Shown: piece after piece, positions 2,813 to 27,755 of the stretch
How positions within the stretch are numbered: position 1 is the stretch's first letter
Layout of the letters: each line of letters starts with the position of its first letter
NCBI RefSeq assembly: GCF_000025665.1
Contig: NC_013926.1
Location: forward strand, 960,001 to 992,000
Reading direction: 5' to 3'
Source: Aciduliprofundum boonei T469
Lineage (GTDB): Archaea; Thermoplasmatota; Thermoplasmata; Thermoplasmatales; Aciduliprofundaceae
DNA: 32,000 nucleotides
The notes under the pieces: model-generated
What the model saw: the letters and a program-made list of their open reading frames with translations, nothing else
Databases searched by the model: none
What the model was told of the DNA's origin: nothing
Position numbers and translations under genes: made by a program

Positions 2813-3071
2813 TCTCACTTACTTGTAGCTTCTTATTTTTTATTTTGTATTGTACCATAGTGTGAAGGTATAGCGCACAATGGGAAGTTTAGAGTGTTAA
2901 GAACTGGTAACCTGTTTAGAAGGCTTTACAATAACAAACTATGAAAAGCTGTTCCTATTGTTCTTAATGAAGAAGCAAAGGAATTTCAACAGAAAAAGAG
3001 TTCTAATGGAGTATTGAAATTCATCCAAAATTCTCACTCAGCGTTTTTTTACCCTTAAAGGTGTAATTACA

Positions 3072-3452
3072 TTACCTTTCCATAGAAATGCTGATATCGG
3101 GCAAATTTTCCTTCAAAGAGGACAAAATAGGGGTATTTTTCGCAACCCTTAGAGATGGATTTTTACCCCGAAAACCTCCCCGATTGTAGTCATAACCTCC
3201 AAGGTGTAAGAGCCATTCCCAAGCTTCTTTCCTCGCACCTTCCACTTCCTCTCTGGGAATTTTGGAAAATGCGTATTTTAATTGCTTTCTGGAGAACCCT
3301 ATGCCCTTCCTCTTGTGCAGGTAATCAACTATAAAGCAAAGAGATAGGTATTCGCTCCAATGCGTGATTGAGGATAATTCCCTGCTCATTCTGGGTAGAG
3401 TGTAATCGTTCTTCCACATCTGCCAAACCTTCTTCTCAAGGGTTCTCCACAT
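3072..3452 (-). CDS. hypothetical protein (last gene of the minus-strand operon)
   Basis: 126-aa ORF starting 3 nt after the stop of the upstream gene. No motif recognised. Confidence 0.5.
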   Translation of the reverse strand: MWRTLEKKVWQMWKNDYTLPRMSRELSSITHWSEYLSLCFIVDYLHKRKGIGFSRKQLKYAFSKIPREEVEGARKEAWEWLLHLGGYDYNRGGFRGKNPSLRVAKNTPILSSLKENLPDISISMER

Positions 3453-3454
3453 CC

Positions 3455-3655
3455 TTACATCTCCATCTCATACTCCCTGTCAATCTCTCTTTTCTGTTTT
3501 ACATTTTCAGCCAGAGAGGTTAAACCTGACATCCAAGGCATTTCTCTTTTCACCATATCGTAGGATGATAGTGTTTTCGCTGCGTTTATGAATTCATCAA
3601 GTTCTTTATCGTCCAGAGATTGTAGCCATTCTTCCCACTCGCTTATCCTCGCCAT
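3455..3655 (-). CDS. hypothetical small protein
   Basis: 66-aa ORF tightly packed between neighbours (3-4 nt gaps). Its C-terminal EYEMEM overlies a purine-rich stretch just upstream of the next start. Confidence 0.5.
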   Translation of the reverse strand: MARISEWEEWLQSLDDKELDEFINAAKTLSSYDMVKREMPWMSGLTSLAENVKQKREIDREYEMEM

Positions 3656-3658
3656 TTC

Positions 3659-4564
3659 TCACACCTCCATCTCCATATCCTTGCTTTTCTCAACATGTGC
3701 CCCTTGAACCTGATTGCTCATCATCCTGTTCATCTGGTTGCCTTCCTTGACTTCTTCCTTGTCTTTCTGCATACACATGTCCTTATACCTGCAATAATCA
3801 CACATCCACTTTTGAAAGTTCTCCTTGTCCAATTCCTCTGGATTTAATCCATACACCTTGTAGTATGTCTTCAACTTCTCCAAGCTCTCATCTAAATTCC
3901 TTCCCTTGTAGCCCCTGTTCAACTCTGTAAGCATATCGTACCCGTGCTGGAGAAGAACCTTTGTGAGCTTAGGTTCTGGTTTAACGGGAACTTCTATCAT
4001 CTCCAACTCATCCACGCTTTGTTTGTTTCCTCTCCGATTAAATGACATCCTGCTCTTGTTGATATAAACCACCTGCATGTCATTTACCTTTATCCCGTTC
4101 CTCTCTAAGAGATGTTTGTAAATGTTCATCTGGTATTTGTGCTGGAGCTTTGGTTCTCCCTCGTTCCTGATTTTCAAGAATGCGTATGGATTAGAGGTTT
4201 TAAAATCGTAAAGAGTTCTATTCTTGGGGTCATAGATTGAAAGAACATCTATGTGTCCCACAACCTTGTAATCCTTTCCCAGAGGAGCCGAATACTCGCT
4301 CTCCATTACATGCATGTTCGGGTAGTATTTCTGCAACAAGTCCTCAAAGTATTCGTGGAGCATAGTCCCGTGCATTAGCGTGGATATTCCTGCCCTGTCT
4401 GGTTTTATCTCTGGATTTCTCCGGGAATAGATGAATTTCCTTTCGCATATTCCCGATATTTCCGTTGAGGTTATCATGTTATTGCGTAGTTTTTCGTATC
4501 TCTCCCTCTGCTTCTTTGCGTATTCTTCCTCAACTGCCTTCGCTATCATCTCTGCGAGTCCCAT
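3659..4564 (-). CDS. Cas4-like / RecB-family PD-(D/E)XK nuclease with four-Cys cluster (element-encoded)
   Basis: GHIDVL ... LYDFKTS gives a D...(D/E)xK core. An N-terminal Cys (GICERK) plus C-terminal CDYCRYKDMC (CX2CX5C) reproduces the Cas4 Fe-S cysteine arrangement. ATG at 4564 preferred over the GTG at 4570. Confidence 0.6.
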   Translation of the reverse strand: MGLAEMIAKAVEEEYAKKQRERYEKLRNNMITSTEISGICERKFIYSRRNPEIKPDRAGISTLMHGTMLHEYFEDLLQKYYPNMHVMESEYSAPLGKDYKVVGHIDVLSIYDPKNRTLYDFKTSNPYAFLKIRNEGEPKLQHKYQMNIYKHLLERNGIKVNDMQVVYINKSRMSFNRRGNKQSVDELEMIEVPVKPEPKLTKVLLQHGYDMLTELNRGYKGRNLDESLEKLKTYYKVYGLNPEELDKENFQKWMCDYCRYKDMCMQKDKEEVKEGNQMNRMMSNQVQGAHVEKSKDMEMEV

Positions 4565-4790
4565 TCTCACTCATCCCCTTCTTAAAATAGTGAGTTTCCA
4601 AGATGTCCAAAACCTCAACCTCATCGAAATCGTGTTCGTTGATTAGTTTATCCCTCGCCAATTTCTCTATGTCATCGTAATAGAGGAACATCAAGCCCTC
4701 GATTTTCTTGTTCCTGCCTTTGTATTTTCCCTTATACACTATCGTCAAAAAATCCCCGTCTTTCTCATCATCTAAAACTACTCCTTCCAC
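4530..4790 (-). CDS. hypothetical protein
   Basis: 86-aa ORF in the co-directional operon. No motif recognised. Confidence 0.45.
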   Translation of the reverse strand: MEGVVLDDEKDGDFLTIVYKGKYKGRNKKIEGLMFLYYDDIEKLARDKLINEHDFDEVEVLDILETHYFKKGMSENGTRRDDSEGS

Positions 4791-4794
4791 TCTC

Positions 4795-5688
4795 TCACGC
4801 TCCTATCTCTATCTCGTTTCCTCTCTGGGCTTTCATCTGGGCTTTTCCTTCCACAACTTCCTCGTATTCCCTGCCGTCCAGAATTTCTTTTAACTGCTCC
4901 CACTTCATACTCCTTGGAACTACTCCCGCTTCCTTCATGGCACTCAATCCATAGCCGTAGTTGTAGAGCATTCTTATCGTCCTTGTTTTGTTCTCATCCT
5001 TTCTCGGAATGGCCAATATGTAGTTCTTCTTGTCAATATCTGCTTCTCCCTTTCCTGCGTGGAATATAACCATCGGTGGCTCTACATACTTGGTATCCTT
5101 GTCCAGCATTCCGTTCTCTTTGAGAGTTTTTACAAGGGCTGTGTGGTGGCAAGTGCCTTTCCTCTTGAACAATTCACAATCACACTTCAAATCGTTTAAC
5201 TTCCCAGATACTCTATGCTCTCCAGATTTGCCCAAAACAACCACATCTATGTGCTGCATGTTCTCTATCTCTTTCCTCAAATCCTTTATTTCTCTAATGA
5301 GCTGATTTCTCTTTCCTGCCATGTATGACTTGATGAAATCCTCGGTGGTAGCGCTAATCGGAATATTCGGATAGTCCCTTCCTCTAACTTCGGCAATGTA
5401 AGAATGCGTGAAATCTCTCCATTCGGGCAACTTTTCTTCGGGAACATTTATGCTCAACCTCGCAGAGTAATGAGAGCCATCCCCGTTAGGCACTACAAAG
5501 AAATCCATCCTCACGCCTTGGGGAACGGGTAAATCTTCCTGCTCCTCAATCCTATCTTTCATCGCCTTGATTTTTTGCCTTATCTCATACTTCTCCTTGT
5601 CATTCGCCTCTTTCGGAACTAAGGGCTTATCTTCCCTGTGAAATTCGTAATCGGAATACTCATACCTGTAAAACTTGTTCCATCTCAT
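4795..5688 (-). CDS. SWIM zinc-finger-containing protein
   Basis: CDCELFKRKGTCHH fits the SWIM pattern CxCx(n)CxH. 297-aa ORF in the operon. Confidence 0.55.
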   Translation of the reverse strand: MRWNKFYRYEYSDYEFHREDKPLVPKEANDKEKYEIRQKIKAMKDRIEEQEDLPVPQGVRMDFFVVPNGDGSHYSARLSINVPEEKLPEWRDFTHSYIAEVRGRDYPNIPISATTEDFIKSYMAGKRNQLIREIKDLRKEIENMQHIDVVVLGKSGEHRVSGKLNDLKCDCELFKRKGTCHHTALVKTLKENGMLDKDTKYVEPPMVIFHAGKGEADIDKKNYILAIPRKDENKTRTIRMLYNYGYGLSAMKEAGVVPRSMKWEQLKEILDGREYEEVVEGKAQMKAQRGNEIEIGA

Positions 5689-5697
5689 TTCATCACC

Positions 5698-5997
5698 TCA
5701 CACCCAAGCCCAATCGTATGCGTTCGCTACCAAGTTCCAATAATCCTCGTCCAGCTCCAAGTTCTTCTTGTCTATGACTTCCTTTATCCTCTTGTAAAAC
5801 TCCTTTCCGAAATTCTCCGTGTATTTCGGTAAGGGTATGGAGATTACATTCTTTCTCCAAATCTCGCTATCCCTGATTTTCATACTCGCAATCTTGCCAT
5901 CCACGAACTCCACTACCAGATACTTGTTGCCATCTTTGATGTATTTTGCCAGAGGAGAAGTGGCTAATCTATCGTAGAATTTGGAGTATATTTCCAA
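5698..5997 (-). CDS. hypothetical protein
   Basis: 99-aa ORF in the operon. No motif recognised. Confidence 0.5.
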   Translation of the reverse strand: MEIYSKFYDRLATSPLAKYIKDGNKYLVVEFVDGKIASMKIRDSEIWRKNVISIPLPKYTENFGKEFYKRIKEVIDKKNLELDEDYWNLVANAYDWAWV

Positions 5998-6011
5998 AGC
6001 AACGGCGTCCT

Positions 6012-6212
6012 TTATCGTATAACCACCTCCCTGTTCTCTATCGTCTCCTCAATCATCTTCTCCAGCAAGTCAAGAATCATGTCTATGTCCTCTTTCGTGC
6101 TTCCTATCTCCGCAATAATCCCGTCCAGAATGTCCAAGAGTTCCCGCGAAGGTTCATCTATCACTTCGGTTCTCAACCGCATGACCCTCTCTCTCAATCT
6201 CCGCAAACTCAT
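6012..6212 (-). CDS. small acidic protein, paralogue 3 of a tandem triplet
   Basis: Begins MSLRRLRERVMRLR and contains LLDILDGIIAE. Shares the M(S/N)L.R..RK(I/V)..L...(E/D)....LDIL(E/D)..I(A/T)E pattern with the two upstream ORFs. Start overlaps the upstream stop (ATGA). Confidence 0.6.
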   Translation of the reverse strand: MSLRRLRERVMRLRTEVIDEPSRELLDILDGIIAEIGSTKEDIDMILDLLEKMIEETIENREVVIR

Positions 6213-6406
6213 TTCTTTCCCTCCTTCTTCTTCTCTCTCTCAACCACGATTTCTATCAAGCCATCTATCGCCTTGCTCACTTCCTCGTCCATCACTTCCA
6301 GCTCCGTTATCAAATCTTCCAAGATGTCCAAGAGCATTTGCGTATCCTCGTCGCTTGACATTTTCCCCAGAAAAACTATCTTCCTCTTTACCCTGCCCAA
6401 GTTCAT
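6209..6406 (-). CDS. small acidic protein, paralogue 2 of a tandem triplet
   Basis: Begins MNLGRVKRKIVFLG and contains LLDILEDLITE. 4-nt stop/start overlaps at both ends. Confidence 0.6.
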   Translation of the reverse strand: MNLGRVKRKIVFLGKMSSDEDTQMLLDILEDLITELEVMDEEVSKAIDGLIEIVVEREKKKEGKK

Positions 6407-6594
6407 AGTTCAACCTCCACTTCGTTGTTCCTGCTCATAACCATCTCTTTGCTCTTTACTTCCATCTCCCTGCTCCTCATCTTCTTCATCTCTGCAATCA
6501 TTTCTTCCAAGATGTCTAAAATCTCGTATGTTTCCTCGTTCGTTGCCTTTCCCCGAAGGTGCATTATCTTCCTCTCTGCTCTCTCCAAACTCAT
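6403..6594 (-). CDS. small acidic protein, paralogue 1 of a tandem triplet
   Basis: Begins MSLERAERKIMHLRG and contains ILDILEEMIAE. 4-nt stop/start overlaps at both ends. Confidence 0.6.
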   Translation of the reverse strand: MSLERAERKIMHLRGKATNEETYEILDILEEMIAEMKKMRSREMEVKSKEMVMSRNNEVEVEL

Positions 6595-6782
6595 AACTCA
6601 ACCTCCCTCTCCTCAACGGGTTTTAGAGAAATGAGTTGAAAGTGCTTGTTTATCTCCCGTGCCGATTTCTCCATATTCATTATGTAATCCTTCGCTTCTT
6701 CCTCGCTGTCAAATTCTTTCGTTAGCTTTATGTATCTCCCGTCATAATCTTCCTGCTCCCACTTCGCTACCCACTTGCTCAT
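6591..6782 (-). CDS. hypothetical small protein carrying a protospacer-like site (6724-6760)
   Basis: 63-aa ORF with ATGA coupling at both ends. Codons WEQEDYDGRYIKL match CRISPR-2 spacer 2 at 30/37 nt. Confidence 0.6.
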   Translation of the reverse strand: MSKWVAKWEQEDYDGRYIKLTKEFDSEEEAKDYIMNMEKSAREINKHFQLISLKPVEEREVEL

Positions 6783-8110
6783 AACTCTACCTCCACTTCT
6801 TTGTGCTGATTTGGAACACTATGCTGGTTTGGAACATTTTGAGCGTGAGCTATTTCTTGGGGTTGCATTCCCGGACCCTTTGGTGCTTCCACTTCCTTGG
6901 AGTTCTCCTTCTCCTTTGCCATCTCTTTCTTCGCTTCTTTCATTAGTTTGGCTTCGTATTCTATCCTCTGTCGATCCACTTCGGAGATTGCGTGGTTTAT
7001 CGCTGGAACTTTCTCCAAGAGTTTCCTAACCGTTCTGTTCGTTTCGTGGAATAGTTTGTTTCCTGCCTTGTCCAAGTCCTCCTCCTTTTGAGCGTTGAGG
7101 AAAGTTAAAACATACTCTCCCCTTTTCTGCAATGCGTCTTTCGCTCCCATTCTGGACAAAATGGATATTGAGGTGCTTTCCACAACCGCTTCCTCAAAAT
7201 TGTTATCGGGCGTCATCATCCTTTCCTTGTGCCTTATTGCGTGTGCCAATTCGTGTATGAGTGTTCCAAGCATGTGATTGTAGCTCTTGCTCCTCACGAT
7301 TGTTATCTTTCCTTCTTTCATATCGTATTTCCCGTGATATTTCAACTTGTTAGTGTTGCCTATGGTGTAAATCTCCTCTACGGGTATGGGTGAGGAATCC
7401 CGTATCATCTCGTAGAATTTTCTATACTCGTTTCCCGTCAGGGTTTTGAACCGCAAATCTGGTAATGGCTTCCCGTGTGTATCGCTCTCTGCATAAACCT
7501 TCTCTGGCTTGAAATACATCCTTTCCCCTCTGGGAACTTTGGCAGTCATGTAGCCCCTTTTCAAGTCATAGTAAAGGTTCGTTAATGCTTTCTGATTATC
7601 TCCGTAATTCTCCGCTATTGCACCAGCCAAACCCATAGCACTTACCTTGTCCTGCTGCAATAGATTACCCACTTTCTCGTCCAACGCTTTGGCGAATTCC
7701 TGCGGAGATTTGGATTTTAGAGCCAATTCCCTTACATCCTTCAATTCCTGCGGTAAGTCCCTTTTCTGATATTCGTAGATAGTTTTTGGATTGGGTCTCC
7801 ATATCCAGATTGGCTGTGCGTCCTTGTTTATGTGCCTACCCAATTTCTCCCACTTGTAGCGTGGTAAAACTAATTCTCCCGTCTCTGCCAATTCTGGTTT
7901 CTGGGAGATTATTAGAAGGGTATTGTAGAGAGAATAGTTGTAGGATAGGTTCTTCACTTTGAGCAAGTCCTGTACCCTCTCAGATTTCGTTAACTCCTTC
8001 AGCCCCTCTTTGAACTTGGTGTTGAGGAACTTGCTTACATCGTCATAGTATCGCTTAACCTCCTCCTTCGAGTATCTCATCTTCTTCATTCTAACCATCC
8101 CTTCTGGCAT
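6779..8110 (-). CDS. ArdC-like protein: N-terminal ssDNA-binding-type domain plus HExxH metalloprotease domain
   Basis: YSLYNTLLIISQ ... LPRYKWEKLGRHINKDAQPIWIW follows the ArdC_N pattern (Y.G.N.LLL ... F.QW..LG..V.KGE...I). IHELAHAIRH supplies the HExxH motif (codons at 7241-7255). First gene of the operon; TTTTATATA box at ~8145-8155 on the - strand. Confidence 0.55.
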   Translation of the reverse strand: MPEGMVRMKKMRYSKEEVKRYYDDVSKFLNTKFKEGLKELTKSERVQDLLKVKNLSYNYSLYNTLLIISQKPELAETGELVLPRYKWEKLGRHINKDAQPIWIWRPNPKTIYEYQKRDLPQELKDVRELALKSKSPQEFAKALDEKVGNLLQQDKVSAMGLAGAIAENYGDNQKALTNLYYDLKRGYMTAKVPRGERMYFKPEKVYAESDTHGKPLPDLRFKTLTGNEYRKFYEMIRDSSPIPVEEIYTIGNTNKLKYHGKYDMKEGKITIVRSKSYNHMLGTLIHELAHAIRHKERMMTPDNNFEEAVVESTSISILSRMGAKDALQKRGEYVLTFLNAQKEEDLDKAGNKLFHETNRTVRKLLEKVPAINHAISEVDRQRIEYEAKLMKEAKKEMAKEKENSKEVEAPKGPGMQPQEIAHAQNVPNQHSVPNQHKEVEVEL

Positions 8111-8331
8111 TTGTTTCGATGTTCCCGATGTTTTTAGGAGGCCCTATATAAAATTGTCGATGAGCTTGAATGCAGGATTCTCTCTGTGTAGAACACATTC
8201 TCCTTGCAATCTCAAATTTTGAACCTCAATTTTTCTTCCTTCAGAATCAACAAAATCAGTATGTGCTAATATTTCTTCGGAGAAAGTATTATAATTAAGT
8301 ATACTTATTTTCTTCGAAGGAAGGTGATGTT

Positions 8332-10629
8332 ATGGAAAATCAGAAAGTAATTGATGATATAGAAGAAGCAATTGAAAAATTGATGACTCATGAACTTTTT
8401 AATGAAGCTTTTCAAAATGAAATGCTACCAAAATTAAATACTTTCAAAAATGATAAAGAGTACGTATATTCTACCTATGGAGAGAAGTTCAGAGATGTTA
8501 ACTCATTAGATGACAATACCTTAAAAAATCTCATTTCTAATTTCTTAAATAATTCTGAAAATAGACATTGGACCGGAATGCAATGGCAAAAAAATAAAAT
8601 CATAAAAAATATTGATAAATTAAGAAAAGCTCTTGTATATGCAGTTGAACACCATACTGATGATGATCCCATACCTATGCTCAAAGAATTTGAAAAGGTT
8701 CCTGGCATAAGTTATGGTATTTCAACTCCAATCCTACATGTGATGTATCCAGAGAGGTTTTGCCCTCTAAACGAAAAAACTTACAACGCCCTCATAATAA
8801 CTGGAGTTTATAATACTCTGAATCTTAGTACTACTAATAGGGGTACTCCAAAAAAGGATGGAATTAAAGATTACCCCAAAATTAATGAATTCTCTAAAAA
8901 ATTAGTTGAAAAAATAAGAGAGAAATATAATTTAGATGAAACTTTTAGTTTGTGGGAAGTGGACGCATTGTGGCACTTTATAAATGAGGCTAAGAAGAAG
9001 AGCGCTTCCGGCTGCTATTTGGAAATTATCAAGGTTCCTCGTAAAAGAGCCACTATAGATGTTTATAAAGAGACACTCATAGGAAAATATTTGTGGTGTC
9101 CAAACACAAAAGAGTATGTAAATGGTGAAAAGGGAGTTATGGAGAAAGTTAAGCCTGAGGACATTATAATCCATGATTGGGATGGTATAATATACGGGTA
9201 TTCAATAGTAGAGAAAGAGCCTGAAAGTGTCTCTAAGGAAGATTTGATAAAAATTTTTGAAAATGAGAGGTTTCTAAACGACAGTTATAAAGAAGCTATT
9301 GAAAAATATACATCTAAAAATATCAAAGGATTTTACATCGTTAAACTTAAGAATTTCAGTAGATTTGAGAAAGAATTTAGGTATTCTGAGGTTGAGGGAT
9401 TACCAGAACAACAGAATTTACAACGTTTAAGGGGAAAATATTTACTGGAGCTTGATAAGGATGTATGTGAATATTTTGGAATAATGCAAGATGGGCCACC
9501 TAAAGAGATCCAATTTGAAAAAGAGATAGGAACTCTCTTAAATGCAAAAAATCAGGTTATTCTCTATGGTCCACCCGGCACGGGTAAGACATGGATTGCA
9601 AGAAATTATGCCCTAAATGGAGTAGGAGAAAACAACGATCGTGTGGCATTCGTAACATTCCATCCATCCTTTTCATATGAGGATTTCGTAGAGAGCATAA
9701 AACCGAATGCTGATGAAGACGAATTGAGATTCAGAATTGAAGAAGGGATATTCAAGAGGATAGCAAGAAATGCGTACAATGCACTTTTAGAGTATGCTGG
9801 TGTTCATGTTTCTAAGAGATGGGATGCGAATGGTGAATTGCCCGATTTAGAGGATGAGGAGAGAAACAAAGTAAAAGATGTCCTTGATAAGGAGGATTTT
9901 CCAAAATTCTATATCATCATTGATGAGATTAACAGAGGAGATGTAAGCAAGATATTTGGGGAGCTCATAACTTTGCTGGAGAAAGACAAGCGTCTGTTTA
10001 TGGAAAATGAGATGATAGTAAGACTTCCTTATTCTAAAAAGAAATTCGGTGTGCCTCCGAATCTTTACATCATAGGCACAATGAACACTGCAGATAGGAG
10101 CATAGCGCTTATGGATGTGGCTCTGAGGAGAAGATTTGCTTTCTTGGAGATTATGCCCTCATACACCGTTCTTCTTAAATATCTTGGAATATCAAATGTT
10201 AATAAAGAAGATGATGCTGTTAAAGAGATAAAGGACTGGAAGGGAGATGATTTAAGAGATATCAAAAAACTTGCAATAAAAGCTTTATACACAATTAACG
10301 AAGAAATCAAAAAGAATTACGACAGAGACCACCAGATAGGACATTCTTACTATTTGCAGCTCAAAGATGCAACGACAGAGGATGAGCTTAAGAGCAAACT
10401 GAAATATATCTGGCTCTACGAAATTCTACCTTTACTGCAGGAGTACTTCTACGGCTCAAATGAGAACTTAGAGAAAATACTATACCCATGCAATAAGAGT
10501 GGGAATGTAGAAAATGATGTTATTGGATGCTATAAGAGAGATATAATGAGAGAGGATAAAAGTTGGAGCGTAGCGAAGTTCTTCGATGCTATAATTAATC
10601 ATAAAAAGCCCTCAGAAAAAAATGAGTGA
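8332..10629 (+). CDS. mcrB: McrB-family AAA+ GTPase (type IV restriction) with a long (~420 aa) N-terminal sensor region
   Basis: LYGPPGTGKTW (Walker A, ~9568-9591), FHPSFSYEDFVE, IIIDEINRGDVSKIFGELITLLEKDKR and IIGTMNTADRSIALMDVALRRRFAF are the McrB signature blocks. RBS GGAAGGTGA precedes the ATG. Confidence 0.85.
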   Translation: MENQKVIDDIEEAIEKLMTHELFNEAFQNEMLPKLNTFKNDKEYVYSTYGEKFRDVNSLDDNTLKNLISNFLNNSENRHWTGMQWQKNKIIKNIDKLRKALVYAVEHHTDDDPIPMLKEFEKVPGISYGISTPILHVMYPERFCPLNEKTYNALIITGVYNTLNLSTTNRGTPKKDGIKDYPKINEFSKKLVEKIREKYNLDETFSLWEVDALWHFINEAKKKSASGCYLEIIKVPRKRATIDVYKETLIGKYLWCPNTKEYVNGEKGVMEKVKPEDIIIHDWDGIIYGYSIVEKEPESVSKEDLIKIFENERFLNDSYKEAIEKYTSKNIKGFYIVKLKNFSRFEKEFRYSEVEGLPEQQNLQRLRGKYLLELDKDVCEYFGIMQDGPPKEIQFEKEIGTLLNAKNQVILYGPPGTGKTWIARNYALNGVGENNDRVAFVTFHPSFSYEDFVESIKPNADEDELRFRIEEGIFKRIARNAYNALLEYAGVHVSKRWDANGELPDLEDEERNKVKDVLDKEDFPKFYIIIDEINRGDVSKIFGELITLLEKDKRLFMENEMIVRLPYSKKKFGVPPNLYIIGTMNTADRSIALMDVALRRRFAFLEIMPSYTVLLKYLGISNVNKEDDAVKEIKDWKGDDLRDIKKLAIKALYTINEEIKKNYDRDHQIGHSYYLQLKDATTEDELKSKLKYIWLYEILPLLQEYFYGSNENLEKILYPCNKSGNVENDVIGCYKRDIMREDKSWSVAKFFDAIINHKKPSEKNE

Positions 10630-12017
10630 TACACATGGCCTATTTAGAACTGCTAGAATACAAAGAAAAAGAGCTTGAAATAGTCAAAGAGAAACTCTGG
10701 GATGGTGGGAAAAATACCATTGGTGATAGAACTTTAGATTTGCTCAAAGAGGTGAATGAGAAATTTGTAGATGAGGAAACAGGTACAAAGAAAGAGTTTC
10801 TAGACATCCGAGAATACTCCGAAAAGAGAAAAGTAAAAATTAAAGCCAAAAACTGGGTTGGATTGGTTAGCATAAATGACTGGACCATGGAAATTTTGCC
10901 TAAATTTATTTATAATCTCAAAGAAGAGGAAGACTTAAAAAATAATCGAGATGGAATAATAAAGAACCTCGTGAAAATGTTGCAGATTGCATGGAACTTG
11001 CCAATAAGAGACGTGGATATATCCTCACTAAAGATAGGAGAAAATTCCATATTTGAGGTATTGCTCACCATTTATTCAATAAAGCTCTTGGATGCCATAA
11101 AAGAGGGTTTGTACAAGGAATACATAAGAGTTTCAGATGACTTGCATTATGTAAAGGGACAGATAGATTTTGCAAAGTACTCTCGTAGATGGGAAAGAAG
11201 GCATATTATACCCGTGAATTACAACGATAGAAATCCAGACAATTTGATAAATAGAACACTTAAGTATGCAGCATACCTTGCTTCTCTATATACCCGTAAT
11301 TCCATGAATTTCTCCAATTTAAAAATGGCAGAGAATCTAATGGACTCGGTTTCTCTTGTTCCCGTTAGTGCATCTGAAATCGATTCAATAACCTTTACAA
11401 GGTTAAATGAGGGATACAAACCCTTAATCAATCTGGCTAGGGTTATAATTACAAATTTGAGTCCAGAGTTCACTGGAGGAAAAAAGGATGTGTTTGCATT
11501 TTTAATCCCTATGGAGAAGGTGTTTGAGAGATTCATAGCCAATTCGATAGTACAGAACAAATCCAAGGTTTTGGGAAATGATTGTAAAAGTTGTGAAGTA
11601 TATGTCCAAGGAGCAGATCAAAAAAAGCATCTTCTTAAAGGGAGCAGATTCATGTTAATACCTGATATAATGATAAAAATAAATGGCAAAAGGTACATCA
11701 TAGATACCAAGTACAAGCTTTTGGATACAGAGGATGAGAAAAAGTATGGTGTATCACAAAGTGATGTTTATCAGATGCTTGCCTATGCTTATGCCTATGA
11801 TACACCTAAAATTATGTTATTGTACCCAAAGGGTGTTGGTGATTTTGATAAGAAAGAATGGGAGTTTGAAAACATAAATTCTAAATTAGCAGGAAAAAAG
11901 TTGATAATAGAAACAATAGATTTAATGAAATATGATTTAGTAAAGGAGTATGATAAATTCTTGGAGGAGCTTAATAAGAAAATAGATGAACTTACCAAGA
12001 AAGAAAATACTTCGTAA
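10626..12017 (+). CDS. mcrC: McrC-family PD-(D/E)XK endonuclease subunit
   Basis: LIPDIMIKINGKRYIIDTKYK (D...D.K core) followed by SDVYQMLAYAYAY is typical of McrC. The start overlaps the mcrB stop; an alternative ATG lies at 10635. Confidence 0.8.
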   Translation: MIHMAYLELLEYKEKELEIVKEKLWDGGKNTIGDRTLDLLKEVNEKFVDEETGTKKEFLDIREYSEKRKVKIKAKNWVGLVSINDWTMEILPKFIYNLKEEEDLKNNRDGIIKNLVKMLQIAWNLPIRDVDISSLKIGENSIFEVLLTIYSIKLLDAIKEGLYKEYIRVSDDLHYVKGQIDFAKYSRRWERRHIIPVNYNDRNPDNLINRTLKYAAYLASLYTRNSMNFSNLKMAENLMDSVSLVPVSASEIDSITFTRLNEGYKPLINLARVIITNLSPEFTGGKKDVFAFLIPMEKVFERFIANSIVQNKSKVLGNDCKSCEVYVQGADQKKHLLKGSRFMLIPDIMIKINGKRYIIDTKYKLLDTEDEKKYGVSQSDVYQMLAYAYAYDTPKIMLLYPKGVGDFDKKEWEFENINSKLAGKKLIIETIDLMKYDLVKEYDKFLEELNKKIDELTKKENTS

Positions 12018-12031
12018 CAAAGCTTTTATTT
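12004..12031 (+). promoter_or_regulatory. conserved promoter element, copy 1 (AAAATACTTCGTAACAAAGCTTTTATTT)
   Basis: Shares the ATACTTCGT(G/A)A core plus a T-rich TATA-like box with copies at 12470, 16477 and 31883 (-). The ATG at 12053 is ~22 nt downstream, consistent with a leaderless mRNA. Confidence 0.45.
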
Positions 12032-12052
12032 CCTCGAACATAGTAATAGAAT

Positions 12053-12457
12053 ATGACTTTGCATATTATGTACAATCATAAATGTCCAAAATGCGGTGCT
12101 TATTATATCCCCTACGATGAGGATGTACCTTGTCCAAATTGCGGCTATGTGGAGAAAGATAGAGTTGATTTTATACCAAGAGCCGTGGAATCGTTGAAAT
12201 TCAACTATGAGGCTTATGGATCATACATACCATTCGCATGGTGGATTAGCTCACTTGGAGATTACATCATGGATATTCTTTTCTCAATGTTCCAAGATTA
12301 TGAAGATTCTGGAGCTGAGGATTTTAGCAAGTTTGCCAGAGAATTTTTATCAAAAATAAATTGGAGAGATAACAAGTACATGGAAGAACACATTTACAAT
12401 ATTGCTCTGCGCGTTTATGAAGAACTAGAGAAGGGAAAAGAATCAACAACTCTTTAG
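12053..12457 (+). CDS. zinc-ribbon protein, function unknown
   Basis: N-terminal CPKCG..(13)..CPNCG zinc ribbon. 134-aa ORF with its own copy of the promoter element. Confidence 0.55.
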   Translation: MTLHIMYNHKCPKCGAYYIPYDEDVPCPNCGYVEKDRVDFIPRAVESLKFNYEAYGSYIPFAWWISSLGDYIMDILFSMFQDYEDSGAEDFSKFAREFLSKINWRDNKYMEEHIYNIALRVYEELEKGKESTTL

Positions 12458-12469
12458 TTTACTACAACA

Positions 12470-12497
12470 AAAATACTTCGTGAGAAGCTTTTTATTC
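12470..12497 (+). promoter_or_regulatory. conserved promoter element, copy 2 (AAAATACTTCGTGAGAAGCTTTTTATTC)
   Basis: 12 nt identical to copy 1, followed by a TATA-like TTTTTATT. GGAGGT lies at 12518-12523 and the ATG at 12531. Confidence 0.45.
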
Positions 12498-12530
12498 GCC
12501 CCTTCTCTAACTTTCATGGAGGTAAGAAAT

Positions 12531-13193
12531 ATGGGTAAGGAATTAGATGAGAAGGATGCGGATGCGTTTCTCGGTGCAGGCTGGGAAGATGTGAGATACA
12601 AGGTGCCAAAAGGCAAATTTAGAGTTGCTCTGATAGATATGTTTGACTACACTACCACTATAATTGGAGATTTTGATGATGAAAGCTCTGCAAAAAAGTA
12701 TGTGCTTGATAATGAAGATTTGCTTGGGGGTTACGAAAGCTTGGTTATCTACAATGATGAGGGCAAGCTCGTGTACGATTCTGATTGGAGAGAGGAGAAA
12801 GTAGATGATGAAACTTTGAATAAATTCATAAAAATGGTGCGTGATGAACTTGGTAGCAAGGGATATGAAGAGTATGTCAAATCCTCATTGTTGATATCGG
12901 ATAAGAGCGTGAAATCCATGGATGATATAACCAAAACGGCACTTGAGGTGGATGGCACCGTCCAAGACAAGCTCAAAAACCTGTTTTTCATCCAAGCTTT
13001 TATGGGGTTGGTGAATGTGGAGCTTGGAGCTTTCATAAAATCGGCAGGAATGGAGATAGAGGCAGGCGGGTTCAAGGATCCAAAGGAGGTATACGAGCAC
13101 ATAGGAGATGTGGACGAGCTCACGGATGATGTGATATCCCTCGTATCCCTCGCTGGGCTCAAGTTCGGATACGACTTCAAGCATGGCAACTGA
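12531..13193 (+). CDS. hypothetical protein
   Basis: ATG at 12531, 7 nt after GGAGGT, preferred over the track start at 12480 (which lies inside the promoter element). 220 aa with no motif recognised. Confidence 0.55.
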   Translation: MGKELDEKDADAFLGAGWEDVRYKVPKGKFRVALIDMFDYTTTIIGDFDDESSAKKYVLDNEDLLGGYESLVIYNDEGKLVYDSDWREEKVDDETLNKFIKMVRDELGSKGYEEYVKSSLLISDKSVKSMDDITKTALEVDGTVQDKLKNLFFIQAFMGLVNVELGAFIKSAGMEIEAGGFKDPKEVYEHIGDVDELTDDVISLVSLAGLKFGYDFKHGN

Positions 13194-13334
13194 AGAGAGA
13201 AAGAATGCACATCCTCTACACTGCAAAGTCCTTTACTTTTTCTCTTTTTTACTTCAACGGGAAATGTAATAAATGATGTACATCCCTAAAATGCCGTGTA
13301 AATCTTATTCTCCTCGCAATTCAACGCAAATCTT

Positions 13335-13386
13335 GGACATTCCCTTATTATTTATAATAAATATATAGCAAGATAAGGAGATGTCC
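13335..13386. repeat. 14-bp imperfect inverted repeat flanking an AT-rich core (candidate oriT/operator)
   Basis: GGACATTCCCTTAT (13335-13348) pairs with ATAAGGAGATGTCC (13373-13386) at 12/14. The 24-nt loop is TATTTATAATAAATATATAGCAAG. Lies in the 451-bp non-coding gap upstream of the RHH-relaxase-T4CP operon. Confidence 0.4.
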
Positions 13387-13644
13387 AAAAATAGAGGGGA
13401 CTTGCATAAAAAATGAGTGAATTACACGATTTCTTGAATGTTCAAAATGGGCAAAATTCCTTACTGGCATGTTCAAAAATGTGGAAGTTTTTCATGGAGA
13501 GAATGGATTCAAAAGGAAATTCTTGATGTACATAATTTGAGGTTCAAATTCTCAAATTGAAAAGAGAAGTAGTGTAGAACAGGGAAAATTGAATGTTGCT
13601 AGACATAGACAATTTTAAATAGGGGTTCTAAAGAGAGAGAAGAG

Positions 13645-14145
13645 GTGATGAAAATGGAAGCGGGGCACGAACAAGCACATCTTCATATTGTACTGAGCAG
13701 CAAGTTGAAAGAGGATTTAGACACCATTGCGAGAATGAAGAACACCAGCACGAATAAGATTGTGAGAGAGGCATTGAAGCTCTATGTGCAAGAGGAGTTC
13801 TACAAGAAGGCGGGGTACATATCGAACATAGATAAGATGGTGGGCATGGCAGTGGCAACGGAGCTTTATCCAGAGCTGGAGGAGATAAAGAACAGGCTGG
13901 ACATGATTGCGGATTTTGTCCAGACACAGAGCTCACAGGTTGAAGAGTCTCCGGCTAAAGAAGAGAAGAAAGAAAAAATAGATTTTCCAAGGGTACCGGG
14001 ACTGCACTACAAGGTGGATGGAAACAATGTAATCTATGAGGACGGCTCAATCTACAATCTTTACCTTGGAGCTTGGCTGGTGACGAAAGAGGAAGTTGCC
14101 AAGTGGAAAAGGAAGAAGGAAAGAGAAAGGAATTTGCTGGGGTGA
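13645..14145 (+). CDS. ribbon-helix-helix (CopG/Arc/MetJ-type) DNA-binding protein, putative relaxosome accessory factor/regulator
   Basis: HLHIVLSSKLKEDLDTIARMKNTSTNKIVREALKLYV is a classic RHH beta-alpha-alpha segment. GAGGTGA RBS upstream; the true start may be the ATG at 13648 or 13654. Confidence 0.65.
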   Translation: MMKMEAGHEQAHLHIVLSSKLKEDLDTIARMKNTSTNKIVREALKLYVQEEFYKKAGYISNIDKMVGMAVATELYPELEEIKNRLDMIADFVQTQSSQVEESPAKEEKKEKIDFPRVPGLHYKVDGNNVIYEDGSIYNLYLGAWLVTKEEVAKWKRKKERERNLLG

Positions 14146-14149
14146 GAAA

Positions 14150-14668
14150 ATGATAACCAAAACGAAATTCTCAACAGGCAAGGATGCCGCGATAAAGTTG
14201 GCAAGGTACATAGAGAGAGGAATGAGCAATAACAGAGTTTATACAAGGTTATACTACGAATTTAAACCTGCGAATGATAGAGATTTAAAAGAGTTCGTGG
14301 AGGTTTCACGGGGAGCAGATGAGGACGTCCCTGCTGTCAGGCACATGATTATTGCACCAGAGAGGTTCTACGATGAAAGGCAACTGCATTATTTAGTTAT
14401 GAAAACATTACACGACTGGAGAATAGAGTCCAGAAACTATGGAATTAGATTTCTTTGGGGATTGCATTACAACACGGAGCATCCTCACAGCCACATAGGA
14501 ATGGTATCTCCATACTCAGAGGAGTTAGTCATGGAAAGGGAGGATCTGAAAGAATTCAACAAGATTGTGGAGGAAGTGTTTGGAGAGAAGCTCAAGAGCG
14601 AGAAGAAAATAGAGGAGGAGATGGAAAGAGAGATAAAAGAAGCGGAGGAGTTTGAGGTTGGAGTATAA
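14150..14668 (+). CDS. minimal MOBQ-like relaxase / mobilisation nuclease domain protein
   Basis: LWGLHYNTEHPHSHIGMVS resembles the relaxase histidine-triad motif (H.....(N/H)PH.H..(I/M)(I/V)S, as in RSF1010 MobA). N-terminal KFSTGKDAAIKLARYIERG resembles the catalytic-Tyr segment (..A.YI.RE). ATG at 14150 follows GGGGTGA. Confidence 0.55.
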   Translation: MITKTKFSTGKDAAIKLARYIERGMSNNRVYTRLYYEFKPANDRDLKEFVEVSRGADEDVPAVRHMIIAPERFYDERQLHYLVMKTLHDWRIESRNYGIRFLWGLHYNTEHPHSHIGMVSPYSEELVMEREDLKEFNKIVEEVFGEKLKSEKKIEEEMEREIKEAEEFEVGV

Positions 14669-16476
14669 TGCAGAGAACTGCATTGAGCCCAGAGAGCATA
14701 CACGAAGCAGAGCAGAGAAGGAAGGAAAGAGAGGAAAAGAGGTTAATTCTCTTTGTAGTCATAGGTTTATTGTTCTTCTTTCCACCCCTGTTCCTGCTCC
14801 CCTACATAATAGATTTCCTGCGTAGGAAAGATTACTCAAAAATACCCGTAAAGAGAGTTTTTGATAAAAGAAGATTGTGGAGTTTTTCCTTCCTGCTCAC
14901 TTCTTACTCTCTTTCTTACTTTCTTATCTTTCCTTTCTATGCGAGTTTGAAAAGGAACATACTCCCCTTCTGGAAACCATTTTTTTCATACCCGTTCTCC
15001 GAGTTTTTGGTGTATCCTCACTTCTCCCTTTACTCTAATCTTTACCTGTTCATCCTATACGGGTTGATAGTGCCGATAGTCATAAGCATTCCCCTTGCGG
15101 TAGTGTTGAAAAAGAAATACAGGTTGAGGATACCACCAGATAGTTTAGTAATCCCCACCAAGCAAGGAAACATCGTGATAGAGAAGTATAACACGGGAAT
15201 TATGGTTGTGGGTGCTCCCGGTTCTGGTAAAACGGAATTGATTAAACAAGTAATCTATCAATTCCCGCAAAAGAGAGATTATGTTTGGGTAATTTTCGAT
15301 CCCAAGGGAGATTATTACGAAGCGTTTGGAACGGAAAGAGACATAACTTTGAGCGTGAATGGTTCTTCTTATGCGTGGAACATATTTTGGGAGATAGACC
15401 CCGATAGAGCTACAACGGATGTTATAGAAATAGCCAAAGAGATATTTCCAATTGAAGAAAGAGGAGGAGAGGATAAGTTTTGGGTAGTGACTTCCCAGCA
15501 ACTCTTATCTGCCTTCATACTCACATTTTACAGACAGGCATTACAGACATACACGAAGTATTTCTCTGGTAAAGTGGATAGGGAGAGATTAAAAGAGTTC
15601 CTGCCCACGAACGAGGATTTCATGGATTTCATAAACCAGCTCACCATAGAACAAGCGTATAACCTCTTAGTCAATCAGGAAGATTTGAGGAGCGTTGCCG
15701 AATACATCAATCCACAAGCGATGAAACAGGCAAGTGGTGTGTGGAGCAATTTCTATTCCCGCATAAATGAGATATTCATAGGAGATTTCTACAAGACGGC
15801 AGGAAAGAGACAGATGAGCATAAGGGATTACATAGAAAATCCACAGGGTAGAAAGTTGTTCATAGAGTATAATGTGGAAACGGGAGAAGCCGTTGCACCG
15901 ATATTTAGATTGCTGGTTGATAGAGCGATAAAGTATTCCTTTGCCAGAGAAAATCAGTATAATAGGATAGGAGAGCCAAGAAAGAAATACTTTGTTATAG
16001 ATGAGTTCCAATTGATACCCAAGTTGAAAAGGTATCAGGAATTGGTGAATTTTGGACGCTCTTACTACATAACCTCAATCATAGGAATACAGAGCATAGC
16101 ACAGGTGATAGAGAAATACGGGAAGGATTCCGCAAATGCGGTAGTTGCCGGACACGCCTATTTGTTTGCCCTCCGTGCCTACGATAGTGCCTCCTCTCAA
16201 TTGATACGCTCAAGGATTGGAAAGAAACAGGTATGGCAGAGAGAACCCCAGCACATACAGGTTCAAGGCAGAGGAGTTTATGTTGCCGATAAGTATTCCA
16301 CAACGGAGTATTTCCCGATTAGTGAGGAGCATTTGAGAACCATGCCCGTTGGACAATGTATAATCGTCACTCCCGACGGATTTAGAGAAGTCAATCTCTA
16401 CACTTTCCAGCAGGGTAAAAGGATAATTGCGGAATTGTTGAAAATGTATAATCTTGGTTATTCTTCTCTCCTTTGA
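14668..16476 (+). CDS. type IV coupling protein (VirD4/TraG/TraD-like ATPase) with N-terminal transmembrane region
   Basis: Hydrophobic N-terminal ~150 aa, Walker A VVGAPGSGKTE, Walker B YFVIDEFQLIP, then FGRSYYITSIIGIQSIAQVIEKYG, which is T4CP-like. The start overlaps the relaxase stop (TAATG). Confidence 0.65.
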   Translation: MQRTALSPESIHEAEQRRKEREEKRLILFVVIGLLFFFPPLFLLPYIIDFLRRKDYSKIPVKRVFDKRRLWSFSFLLTSYSLSYFLIFPFYASLKRNILPFWKPFFSYPFSEFLVYPHFSLYSNLYLFILYGLIVPIVISIPLAVVLKKKYRLRIPPDSLVIPTKQGNIVIEKYNTGIMVVGAPGSGKTELIKQVIYQFPQKRDYVWVIFDPKGDYYEAFGTERDITLSVNGSSYAWNIFWEIDPDRATTDVIEIAKEIFPIEERGGEDKFWVVTSQQLLSAFILTFYRQALQTYTKYFSGKVDRERLKEFLPTNEDFMDFINQLTIEQAYNLLVNQEDLRSVAEYINPQAMKQASGVWSNFYSRINEIFIGDFYKTAGKRQMSIRDYIENPQGRKLFIEYNVETGEAVAPIFRLLVDRAIKYSFARENQYNRIGEPRKKYFVIDEFQLIPKLKRYQELVNFGRSYYITSIIGIQSIAQVIEKYGKDSANAVVAGHAYLFALRAYDSASSQLIRSRIGKKQVWQREPQHIQVQGRGVYVADKYSTTEYFPISEEHLRTMPVGQCIIVTPDGFREVNLYTFQQGKRIIAELLKMYNLGYSSLL

Positions 16477-16501
16477 AAACTTCGTGAGCATGTTTTTATA
16501 C
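16477..16501 (+). promoter_or_regulatory. conserved promoter element, copy 3 (AAACTTCGTGAGCATGTTTTTATAC)
   Basis: Same ACTTCGTGAG core plus a TTTTTATA box. The ATG at 16523 is ~22 nt downstream. Confidence 0.4.
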
Positions 16502-16522
16502 TCTAACTACAAACTCTTCTGT

Positions 16523-17650
16523 ATGAGCAGAGCTACAAAAGCTGCATTAATAATATCAATATTCCTTGCAATATTTGCAGGTGTTGTAGCAACCCATGAA
16601 GGAGCTCCTGCGAGTGATACTTTATGCATTTCAACTTACATGTTGGTAATTGGGTTTGCATTTTTCTGGTTTGCCTTCAAGTTTGCAGATGCTATGTGGA
16701 AAGGAGAGAAAAAAGTATGGAGATGGCTCAACGATGAGCCAGAGCCGAAAAAGACGAAGGCACTTCCAGCAAAGAGTGAGGATGAAATGATGCTGTATGA
16801 AAGCGATAGAGAGCATAGAACTTATTTCTGGAAAGATTATGTTATCACCGTTGGAACTGGACACTATTTTATGATGAGCAACATGGAAATCCCTTACAAC
16901 GGTGTTTTCATAGTGAAAGAGAAGGATTTCACGATGTTCAAGAGGGTAGATGATATAAATCTCTTTGAGGACGAGATTAAAATGATAGCCGAGAACTGTA
17001 TTGATAAGGGTGACTGCGATATTATTCTGTCGTGGAAAGGCAGTTCCGAGTTTGCATGCGCTAAAGAAGGGTATTTTATTTACTCTTATGGCATTGATTA
17101 TGCAGGATTTTTGTTCAACAACGCTGGGTTCATTCACCTGTTTGACCATGATTGTAGAGGCTTGACAAAGAACAAAGATGCGATGTTTAGATTCGTGAAA
17201 GACAACTTGAACAAGAACGAAGTGGCTTTGATATTAACTCTCCCCGCATATACCATTCTCTCTCTAAGCGCGAAAGTAGCTCACTCTATGCTTAGGATTG
17301 ATAGGGATATCTTTGAAGTGATGTTTCCAGAGGAGAAATTGAGCTACATTTACGATGTACCTTTCAAGATAAGAAACAAGAAAGAGCTTGCTACGATTGC
17401 AAACGAGGCACAGAGGTTGCACGCAGAGGTTGGCGTGGTGTTTGAGTTTGAGAATAAGATGATCATAGCTGCAAAGGCCGAGCTTGCCAGGTTTATGATG
17501 CCAGAGTCCAAGGAAAGCGATTTAAGAGAGGACATCCTTGCCATATACTACGAGGGAGATGAAAATCCAGTGGTCGTACCGGTTGAGTGGAGAGCATGGA
17601 CCAAGCATGAACTGATAAAAGCAGCAAGCGAAGTTGTTGGTTCCATGTAA
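16523..17650 (+). CDS. membrane-anchored hypothetical protein
   Basis: ATG at 16523 preferred over the track start at 16454, which lies upstream of the promoter element. Two N-terminal hydrophobic helices (AALIISIFLAIFAGVV, YMLVIGFAFFWFAF) precede a ~300-aa soluble domain with no recognised motif. Confidence 0.55.
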   Translation: MSRATKAALIISIFLAIFAGVVATHEGAPASDTLCISTYMLVIGFAFFWFAFKFADAMWKGEKKVWRWLNDEPEPKKTKALPAKSEDEMMLYESDREHRTYFWKDYVITVGTGHYFMMSNMEIPYNGVFIVKEKDFTMFKRVDDINLFEDEIKMIAENCIDKGDCDIILSWKGSSEFACAKEGYFIYSYGIDYAGFLFNNAGFIHLFDHDCRGLTKNKDAMFRFVKDNLNKNEVALILTLPAYTILSLSAKVAHSMLRIDRDIFEVMFPEEKLSYIYDVPFKIRNKKELATIANEAQRLHAEVGVVFEFENKMIIAAKAELARFMMPESKESDLREDILAIYYEGDENPVVVPVEWRAWTKHELIKAASEVVGSM

Positions 17651-17720
17651 GCCCAACTAATAATTTTGTTCGTATTTTTCTATCTTCATTTTACAAATTC
17701 AATTAGCCCATACTTAAGAT

Positions 17721-18279
17721 ACTCCAAAACCACATGGTACTTCTTCTACTTGATAGGATAAAGAGAGAGGGAATAATAACAGAAGTGTTTCCACACCACA
17801 TGGTACTTCTTCTACTGATTGAAAATGATATATGTTTGAGGTGAGAAAAATGGTTTCCACACCACATGGTACTTCTTCTACGGAGTTTGGGATGAAATAA
17901 ATAAAAAAGTGGAGAATAGGTTTCCACACCACATGGTACTTCTTCTACGTAATCTACAAAAAGATAAACAATAAATTCGTATTGGTTTCCACACCACATG
18001 GTACTTCTTCTACTGATTGAAAATGATATATGTTTGAGGTGAGAAAAATGGTTTCCACACCACATGGTACTTCTTCTACAGATATGGCAAAGGAAATAAG
18101 CAAAGTTATTGAAATTGTTTCCACACCACATGGTACTTCTTCTACCTTAACTGATGAAAACATAGATAAAATCGTTGGAAACGTTTCCACACCACATGGT
18201 ACTTCTTCTACTATCTACAATGAAGATACTGATGAGCTTGTTGCAATTATGTTTCCACACCACATGGTACTTCTTCTAC
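17721..18279 (-). CRISPR. CRISPR array 1: 9 repeats, 8 spacers
   Basis: 29-nt repeat GTTTCCACACCACATGGTACTTCTTCTAC (+ strand) at 17721 (degenerate), 17787, 17853, 17920, 17985, 18051, 18117, 18183 and 18251. Spacers are 36-39 nt. The leader on the 18280 side and the degenerate repeat at the far end imply - strand transcription; the functional repeat GTAGAAGAAGTACCATGTGGTGTGGAAAC would give the 8-nt handle GUGGAAAC. Confidence 0.97.
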
Positions 18280-18536: not shown

Positions 18537-18545
18537 AATGAAATT

Positions 18546-18809: not shown

Positions 18810-18810
18810 T

Positions 18811-19776: not shown

Positions 19777-19780
19777 AAAA

Positions 19781-20982: not shown

Positions 20983-21019
20983 GCGTGTAATAGAGAAAAT
21001 ATAGTATAAACATTTTGTG

Positions 21020-23034: not shown

Positions 23035-23097
23035 AAAACCACCCCACTTCTGCAAATTTCTTCCATGCCGTTCTATCCTCTTTTTCTATATTAATAT

Positions 23098-24389: not shown

Positions 24390-24457
24390 TTTCTACTCTT
24401 AGGTTTTGCATCTCAAAGTATCCTGAGAATTTCAAGTATATTTTGGGGCCTTAAGAG

Positions 24458-25660: not shown

Positions 25661-25670
25661 CTAAACCACC

Positions 25671-27297: not shown

Positions 27298-27310
27298 TCA
27301 TCTCACCTCC

Positions 27311-27754: not shown

Positions 27755-27755
27755 C

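Follow-up and report, generated by a model that had tools for sequence, protein, structure and literature searches.

The DNA analysed here (the window) is a 32,000-nucleotide stretch of the Aciduliprofundum boonei T469 chromosome (NC_013926.1, positions 960,001 to 992,000), which carries a CRISPR-Cas locus of type III-A with two arrays and an island resembling an integrative and conjugative element (ICE). A spacer of array 2 (23196-23232) and a site at 6724-6760, 16 kb away on the same chromosome and inside a small gene of the island, are identical at 30 of 37 positions (seven mismatches, 81% identity), and this match is real and beyond chance. The features concerned are the following, in window positions.

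6724-6760, - strand: protospacer-like site, where the sense mRNA is complementary to the CRISPR RNA (crRNA) at 30 of 37 positions
6716-6723, - strand: 3' flank of the target RNA, AACGAAAG (reverse complement of the + strand)
6591-6782, - strand: target open reading frame (ORF) of 63 amino acids (aa), the site covering codons W8-L20
3072-8110, - strand: operon of 11 tightly packed ORFs, with the 63-aa target ORF as second gene
8145-8153, - strand: TATA-box-like TTTTATATA, with 35 nt from its downstream edge to the ATG at 8110
17721-18279, - strand: CRISPR array 1, eight canonical repeats and a degenerate terminal repeat, leader at 18280-18549
23098-24132, - strand: CRISPR array 2, 15 canonical repeats and a degenerate terminal repeat, leader at 24133-24402
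23196-23232, - strand: the 37-nt spacer, last but one at the trailer end of array 2
18546-23055, - strand: cas2, cas1 (I-B-like), cas4, cas6, Csx14/NE0113-type and TM1812/Csx1-like genes
24518-30023, - strand: csm5, csm4, csm3, csm2 and cas10/csm1, assigned by NCBIfam equivalogs and motifs

The + strand of the site reads AGCTTTATGTATCTCCCGTCATAATCTTCCTGCTCCC, and the spacer in crRNA sense, the reverse complement of 23196-23232, reads ATCCTTATCATCCTCCCGTCATAATCTTCTTGCTCCC (also written AUCCUUAUCAUCCUCCCGUCAUAAUCUUCUUGCUCCC). The mismatches fall at crRNA positions 2, 4, 9, 10, 11, 12 and 30. Since the target ORF is encoded on the - strand while the crRNA corresponds to the + strand, the sense mRNA of the ORF is complementary to the crRNA, with an unbroken duplex of 25 bp over crRNA positions 13-37, including one U:G wobble, which is the mismatch at position 30. 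In type III complexes every sixth nucleotide is unpaired (Steens 2021, PMC8376896). Positions 12 and 30 are such sixth positions, and the effective mismatches are therefore 2 and 4 in segment 1 and 9, 10 and 11 in segment 2, segments 3-6 being perfect. The predicted free-duplex energy at 70 °C is -26.5 kcal/mol for the resident target vs. -37.8 kcal/mol for a perfect one.

None of 1000 shuffled versions of the spacer gave a site with fewer than 10 mismatches, which rules out a chance match. The best match of each of the other 22 spacers, on both strands of the whole window, has at least 12 mismatches, and no match with 10 or fewer mismatches was found for them in the window and the related loci compared. 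No better-matching site for the spacer was present in the window or in the T469 loci compared, and at 81% identity the site falls short of the identical or nearly identical non-array site in the own genome that defines self-targeting in the strict sense. The flank AACGAAAG, set against the anti-tag GUUUCCAC, pairs with the predicted 8-nt tag GUGGAAAC at one of eight positions, i.e., it has no complementarity to the 5' tag, as in a type III target, and anti-tag protection of the site is ruled out. A preliminary description of this DNA had called the site protospacer-like and had held that tag:anti-tag self-protection cannot explain the coexistence of spacer and target. Its mismatch positions and flank pairing were recomputed and all its numbers are correct, the argument stands, and the site is a genuine homologue of the protospacer in the orientation that a type III crRNA requires.

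The repeat is common to both arrays (GTTTCCACACCACATGGTACTTCTTCTAC on the + strand, GTAGAAGAAGTACCATGTGGTGTGGAAAC on the - strand), its end in the inferred transcription direction being GTGGAAAC; the tag is taken from the - strand repeat. Both arrays have the leader at the high-coordinate side and the degenerate terminal repeat at the low-coordinate side, and the - strand encodes the cas genes; together these features argue that the arrays are read from the - strand. Leader and first repeat make up a duplicated stretch of 299 nt, 92% identical between the arrays (18251-18549 and 24104-24402). The spacer is the second oldest of array 2, one spacer away from the degenerate terminal repeat, and is flanked by two perfect 29-nt repeats. 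Each array also has one exactly duplicated spacer: in array 1, 17816-17852 equals 18014-18050 within a duplicated block of ~125 nt (89% identical), and in array 2, 23598-23637 equals the adjacent 23667-23706. Four newest or coding-looking spacers had no matches in the viral contig collection, and Rfam at the gathering threshold returned nothing for the whole window, including no CRISPR-DR match. A vent metagenome contig (L014) with a cas locus ~90% identical to that of the window has csm5 and the csx1-like gene separated by three repeats, two of them degenerate (4416-4545), and its two spacers are unrelated to the T469 spacers. This may be a genuinely shorter array or an assembly collapse, and would thus be uninformative on shared old spacers.

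The presence of cas10/csm1 with csm2-csm5 in one locus identifies the system as type III-A, all five being NCBIfam equivalogs above cut-offs: Csm1 (1.4e-147), Csm2 (5.5e-20), Csm3 (6.8e-61), Csm4 (1.2e-41) and Csm5 (1e-26). The predicted catalytic motifs include the HD of Cas10 at residue 16, its GGDD at 561 and the aspartate of the Csm3 motif GGMDNP. Among the other genes, cas6 was matched at 4.5e-37, the Csx14/NE0113-type protein has weak similarity to the ring nuclease Crn1, and the TM1812/Csx1-like protein has the R-x4-H HEPN motif as RNLIAH at residue 382. The locus is thus apparently intact, and because it looks functional, a self-target that activates it should be costly. Directly upstream of cas10 is a gene for a 390-aa AAA_14/DUF4143 ATPase with an HTH (30071-31243, - strand), which is not a CARF protein by the searches run.

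The target ORF belongs to an operon whose gene order is a 443-aa zincin-like metallopeptidase, the target ORF, a trio of paralogous ORFs (63-66 aa), further ORFs of 99, 297 and 86 aa, a Cas4-like PD-(D/E)xK nuclease of 303 aa (PHROG match at 2.6e-24, also matched in Pfam), and lastly ORFs of 66 and 126 aa. Its GC content is 42-45% vs. 32-36% in the flanks, and TTTTATATA is a candidate archaeal promoter for it. The 443-aa protein (6779-8110) has an HExxH motif and weak matches to MPTase-PolyVal, DUF6782 and the PHROG families 'metallo-protease' and 'anti-restriction protein', which are zincin-like metallopeptidases of the kind found on conjugative elements; a homologue is named ABOONEI_2226 (A. 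boonei T469) by its source. The start of the 63-aa ORF overlaps the stop of the 443-aa gene through ATGA and a Shine-Dalgarno-like GGAGGT lies 7 nt upstream, so that the two are likely transcribed together, with translational coupling probable. Endings such as ...EVEVEL and ...EREVEL recur among the operon proteins (6779-6800, 6591-6612, 6403-6424 and other gene ends), because each such coding end contains the GGAGGT of the gene that follows and its stop overlaps the start of that gene (ATGA); translational coupling is predicted to be strong throughout the operon. The three tandem paralogous ORFs after the target gene (6012-6594, - strand) read MSLERAERKIMHLRGK..., MNLGRVKRKIVFLGK... and MSLRRLRERVMRLRTE..., and the number and length of such tandem small ORFs vary among related elements (63/65/66, 68/66 and 82/68 aa).

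For the 63-aa protein itself, a confident AlphaFold2 single-sequence model gives a beta-beta-alpha-beta fold with a predicted local distance difference test score (pLDDT) of 88.6. Foldseek with this model returned no match at E <=0.001 in PDB or BFVD; the resemblances beyond that threshold were to ribosomal eL20/LX-like and phage p56-like proteins (E >0.1) and to uncharacterised phage proteins (E ~2e-3). The protein had no family in Pfam and weak matches in PHROGs to families of unknown function, and a family scan of viral contigs found no relatives. An exhaustive HMMER search recovered 17 remote relatives of 54-130 aa, which have in common the N-terminal motif KWEQEDYDG(K/R).

This motif bears on the placement of the mismatches next to the tag. 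The clustering is of nominal significance only, with p ~0.03 (two-sided) for the nucleotides and ~0.05 (one-sided) for the five changed codons. The conserved WEQEDYDG lies under crRNA positions 14-37, with a mean column entropy of 0.84 bits, while the residues under positions 1-13 are variable, at 1.86 bits, equal to the protein average. Because the boundary between WEQEDYDG and the variable residues falls within the site, any two alleles would agree at the tag-distal part and differ at the tag-proximal part, and the orientation needed for RNA targeting sets which end of the site faces the tag. An ordinary gradient of protein conservation would therefore explain the clustering, a mundane cause for a striking placement. 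Survivorship could add to it, as a pair still matching near the tag would cause autoimmunity and not persist; with one case, such an effect is inseparable from the conservation gradient. In the preliminary description the site was taken as possibly marking self versus non-self between related elements. The related elements are borne out by the open homologous frame of the spacer, two ~90% identical island copies and diverged alleles (see below), but a designed mark is not; the clustering coincides with the boundary between WEQEDYDG and the variable residues.

Of the spacer's three frames in sense orientation, only the homologous one is open, and it reads EQEDYDGRMIR vs. EQEDYDGRYIK in the resident gene. 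The seven nucleotide differences amount to five codon differences: two synonymous at the third position (CAG/CAA and AGA/AGG), one K to R (AAG/AGG), one Y to M with all three bases changed (TAC/ATG), and one L to I or M (CTA/AT-). Isoleucine at the last of these codons is present in an environmental allele (L007), and methionine after DG(R), as in the Y-to-M codon, occurs in remote relatives of the 63-aa protein. This codon-difference signature, together with the intact flanking repeats, argues that the spacer derives from a homologous coding allele and is not a decayed spacer.

Five close alleles of the 63-aa gene come from vent metagenomes, where their surroundings are those of the window, with McrB adjacent on one contig. 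All five keep the resident base at positions 4, 9, 10, 11, 12 and 30, and position 2 alone varies; against the spacer they have four extra synonymous differences (14, 15, 18 and 21), for a total of 10-11 mismatches. The resident thus represents the common state and the spacer the odd one. The best long relative (L002) diverges by 6.3% over 3164 nt, and its counterpart of the resident protospacer has five differences; in the same comparison at least five differences occur in 17% of all 37-nt segments of the operon. An enrichment of polymorphism in the protospacer, which would show as orthologue variation concentrated there, is therefore rejected, these segments being equally variable or more. 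One further vent-metagenome allele in the same operon slot is more diverged, at 57% amino-acid identity, between neighbours that are 85% (zincin C-terminus) and 87% (99-aa protein) identical. This allele between its 85-87% flanks, and the replacement of the slot in a second copy of the island described below, indicate that the small-ORF slot is the most variable part of the operon. It is most parsimonious, on these comparisons, that the spacer would have been taken from an unsampled, more diverged relative rather than the resident copy having escaped.

Features of the window on the other strand include the following.

359-2453, + strand: HTH and other ORFs
8332-12017, + strand: McrB-like GTPase and McrC, between the two halves of the island
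12053-17650, + strand: zinc-ribbon, RHH, weak relaxase-like, VirD4/TraD-type and 398-aa ORFs
13645-16476, + strand: conjugation-type module (RHH, 190-aa ORF and 602-aa VirD4/TraD-type coupling protein)

The conjugation-type module is divergent from the operon, as it is in the second copy. The 602-aa ORF matches the VirD4-like CD1115 family (1.2e-25) and TraD (2.4e-21), both below curated cut-offs, and the 190-aa ORF has weak sub-cut-off matches to RlxS (3.4e-5), MobP3 (2e-3), MobL (3e-3) and Relaxase (9e-3). No integrase or VirB4 match was found in the window, which accordingly falls short of a full ICE. The window has no tRNA gene, and there are no flanking direct repeats of at least 12 nt between the candidate island ends, and no att site is definable; homology to the second copy stops near 3046 and 16444. 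The island DNA had no megablast match in PLSDB plasmids and no blastn match in phages.

The second copy (copy B) was found in the T469 draft assembly (GCA_000151085.1), on contig DS990517.1 (L008), where 5947-18876 corresponds to window 3046-16444; in the same assembly, contig DS990539.1 is 99.99% identical to window 11785-32000. Copy B has the same divergent halves and is 90-92% identical in DNA over the coupling-protein, zincin and 99/297/86-aa genes. Its coupling protein, 98% identical to the 602-aa protein of the window, matches Pfam T4SS-DNA_transf, TrwB_AAD_bind and TraG-D_C, and on these matches and its own the 602-aa protein counts as a type IV coupling protein. Copy B occupies another chromosomal site, adjoining XPB/Bax1 genes, and a faint integrase-like ORF adjoins this copy only. 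Copy B is without McrBC, without the Cas4-like gene and without four small ORFs, including the target gene: in place of window 6030-6779 it has ~340 bp of unrelated sequence (L008 11305-11643), with a 70-aa ORF on the reverse strand that has two hydrophobic transmembrane helices (MPPELSAHFWEQLILFLILFIIFTSAIW...GISLLLGAFLGGFVIG...) and could be toxin- or holin-like. One metagenome-assembled genome has the copy-B variant of the slot, also beside XPB/Bax1 genes. The McrBC of the window copy looks like a later insertion, being absent from copy B and having a GC content of 33-36% vs. 41-45% for the island. A contig of 10,807 bp from SRR606249 (L001) corresponds to window 3100-13906; at both ends this mock-community assembly breaks inside segments shared by the copies, which fits a sequenced T469 DNA that contained the two of them. 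In the draft (L015, 15588-17394) the coupling gene is split into 154-aa and 420-aa ORFs vs. one 602-aa ORF in the window (14668-16476), probably a draft sequencing frameshift, as two gap openings separate the sequences over 20 kb.

From the match, its orientation and flank, the frame signature, the alleles and the cas content and motifs, we infer a history and a mechanism of tolerance. Here it is proposed, with a rough probability of 0.6 for the explanation as a whole, that the site is a resident homologue of the protospacer, tolerated through failed Cas10 activation. An ancestor of A. boonei T469 would have acquired the spacer from a related but distinct ICE-like element, from the small gene after the zincin gene and at its most conserved motif, WEQEDYDG. 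The resident copy would carry another allele, which agrees over positions 13-37 and differs over positions 1-12, and its RNA would be bound and perhaps cleaved while the HD DNase and the cyclic oligoadenylate (cOA) cyclase of Cas10 are not switched on. All effective mismatches (2, 4, 9, 10 and 11) lie in segments 1-2, which most likely permits the coexistence, and tolerance via failed Cas10 activation is plausible. A low abundance of the trailer-end crRNA, the ring-nuclease-like host protein (Csx14/NE0113) and repression of the operon might each give extra help.

The preliminary description had pointed out that pairing next to the tag matters for Cas10 activation, which agrees with published work, and the mismatches do lie in that region. 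In TtCmr, cOA synthesis needs pairing at crRNA positions 1-7 except 6, and a mismatched segment 1 or 2 abolishes cOA production while RNA cleavage continues (Steens 2021, PMC8376896). The resident target does not pair fully over this Cas10-activating region, with mismatches at 2 and 4, in addition to those at 9-11 in segment 2. In the III-A system of Staphylococcus epidermidis, mismatching of segments 1 and 2 (S1 and S2) abolishes cOA-dependent interference, with binding hardly affected (Nasef 2022, PMC9704408).

Several points weigh against the proposed explanation. The segments are here only partly mismatched (two of five positions in S1, three of five in S2), interference in vivo survived a triple mismatch over +1 to +3 and, in one sequence context, a fully mismatched S1, and sequence context matters (Nasef 2022, PMC9704408); loss of Cas10 activation by the resident target is thus not assured. 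The source allele was absent from the genome collection (T469 itself not included), the metagenomes and the viral contig collections, in a search with an exact core pattern and two codon-degenerate patterns, and for this reason the history of the spacer is one that we infer. The arrays may also serve a type I effector encoded elsewhere in the genome, and what is known here of the array, of the Csm complex and of the operon comes from sequence alone. As to an inhibitor encoded by the element, none is recognisable, the small ORFs matching no known family in libraries that contain no anti-CRISPR (Acr) models.

Transcription-dependent (conditional) tolerance of prophages by type III-A systems was reportedly described in a Nature paper of 2014 by Goldberg et al. 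Applied to this locus, the mismatched target would still activate Cas10, but as long as the element stays integrated either the operon or the crRNA would be transcriptionally silent, and targeting would set in only upon induction of the operon. This is the best of the alternatives, if a rather unlikely one. It agrees with the transcription dependence of type III-A immunity and its tolerance of repressed prophage targets, as stated in a later report (Goldberg 2018, PMC5754349), with the RHH and HTH regulators that the island encodes, and with the tolerance of S1 mismatches in vivo in the S. epidermidis assays (Nasef 2022, PMC9704408). However, the TATA-like box upstream of the operon and its genes, which are intact and conserved across strains, argue that the operon is used, although not that its expression is constitutive.

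RNA-only targeting, in which the crRNA binds the matched 25-bp part of the mRNA and Csm3 cuts the transcript while Cas10 is not activated, is improbable as an explanation, and equally so is its corollary that the old spacer acts as a post-transcriptional brake on the resident element. [quoted passage not shown] Against it, there is no sign of selection, the spacer is absent from the one environmental relative with a readable array (L014), the gradient of protein conservation accounts in full for the pairing geometry, and 3' trimming of mature crRNAs would shorten the paired part.

The escape allele suggested in the preliminary description, i.e., a spacer taken from the resident copy or its direct ancestor and a gene later point-mutated out of targeting, is less probable still. 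The mismatches do cluster in the region most sensitive for Cas10 activation, but six of the seven mismatch positions carry the resident base in all five environmental alleles, including those ~6% diverged, an outcome that the preliminary description itself had named as counting against its reading, and variation is not enriched in the protospacer, so that neither derived resident bases nor protospacer-enriched variation, the marks of an escape mutant, were found; a difference of the whole codon TAC vs. ATG is also unlikely as a recent escape. Decay of a once-perfect spacer inside the array is very improbable despite its place at the trailer end, second oldest and one spacer from the degenerate terminal repeat, as seven changes in 37 nt beside 58 unchanged bases of two perfect repeats are implausible and the changes keep the homologous frame open, being synonymous or conservative except at one codon.

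Failed Cas10 activation on a resident homologue can be compared with several known systems. As in self-targeting of integrated elements and prophages (Wimmer & Beisel 2020, PMC6990116), a spacer of a chromosomal array is matched by a homologous site within a mobile-element-like island on that chromosome, and coexistence needs mismatches, silence or inhibition; unlike it, the 81% identity is below the usual thresholds and the site is a homologue of the protospacer. The rules for the Cas10-activating region of type III crRNAs (PMC8376896, PMC9704408) fit in that all effective mismatches are at 2-11, with 12 and 30 on unpaired sixth positions; however, they were worked out on bacterial complexes, with segments mismatched in full or with single mismatches. 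With the conditional tolerance of prophages (PMC5754349), the case shares a III-A system that coexists with an integrated element and a sense-orientation target, but the targets there reportedly match perfectly and are tolerated through repression, whereas mismatches alone may suffice here. 'Heterologous autoimmunity' (bioRxiv 10.1101/2021.01.04.425308) is similar in that a spacer from a foreign relative partially matches a resident sequence; it is a theoretical and statistical framework, and here the resident is a mobile element of the same family as the presumed source.

In a survey of conjugation systems, the only archaeal ICE was that of A. boonei (Guglielmini et al. 2011, PMC3158045). The organism is the same and the island has a VirD4/TraD-type coupling protein and a weak relaxase-like ORF; the island could be the ICE of that survey, although the window has no VirB4 or integrase.

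An old spacer partly matching an integrated element of its own genome is an already known phenomenon, and this looks like a fairly ordinary case of tolerated partial self-targeting, a leftover of immunity to a related element. With the spacer come two defined targets, a perfect one and the resident one, on which an archaeal Csm complex could be tested. Should the RNA-only brake, unlikely as it is, hold instead, a fossil memory would restrain the resident element non-lethally while full immunity to the source relative is kept. If tolerance through failed Cas10 activation is true, this archaeon, in which a conjugative-type element is present as two diverged copies, would show in nature how the Cas10-activating-region rule sets immunity apart from autoimmunity: the same crRNA would be lethal for one member of the element family and leave the resident sibling unharmed.

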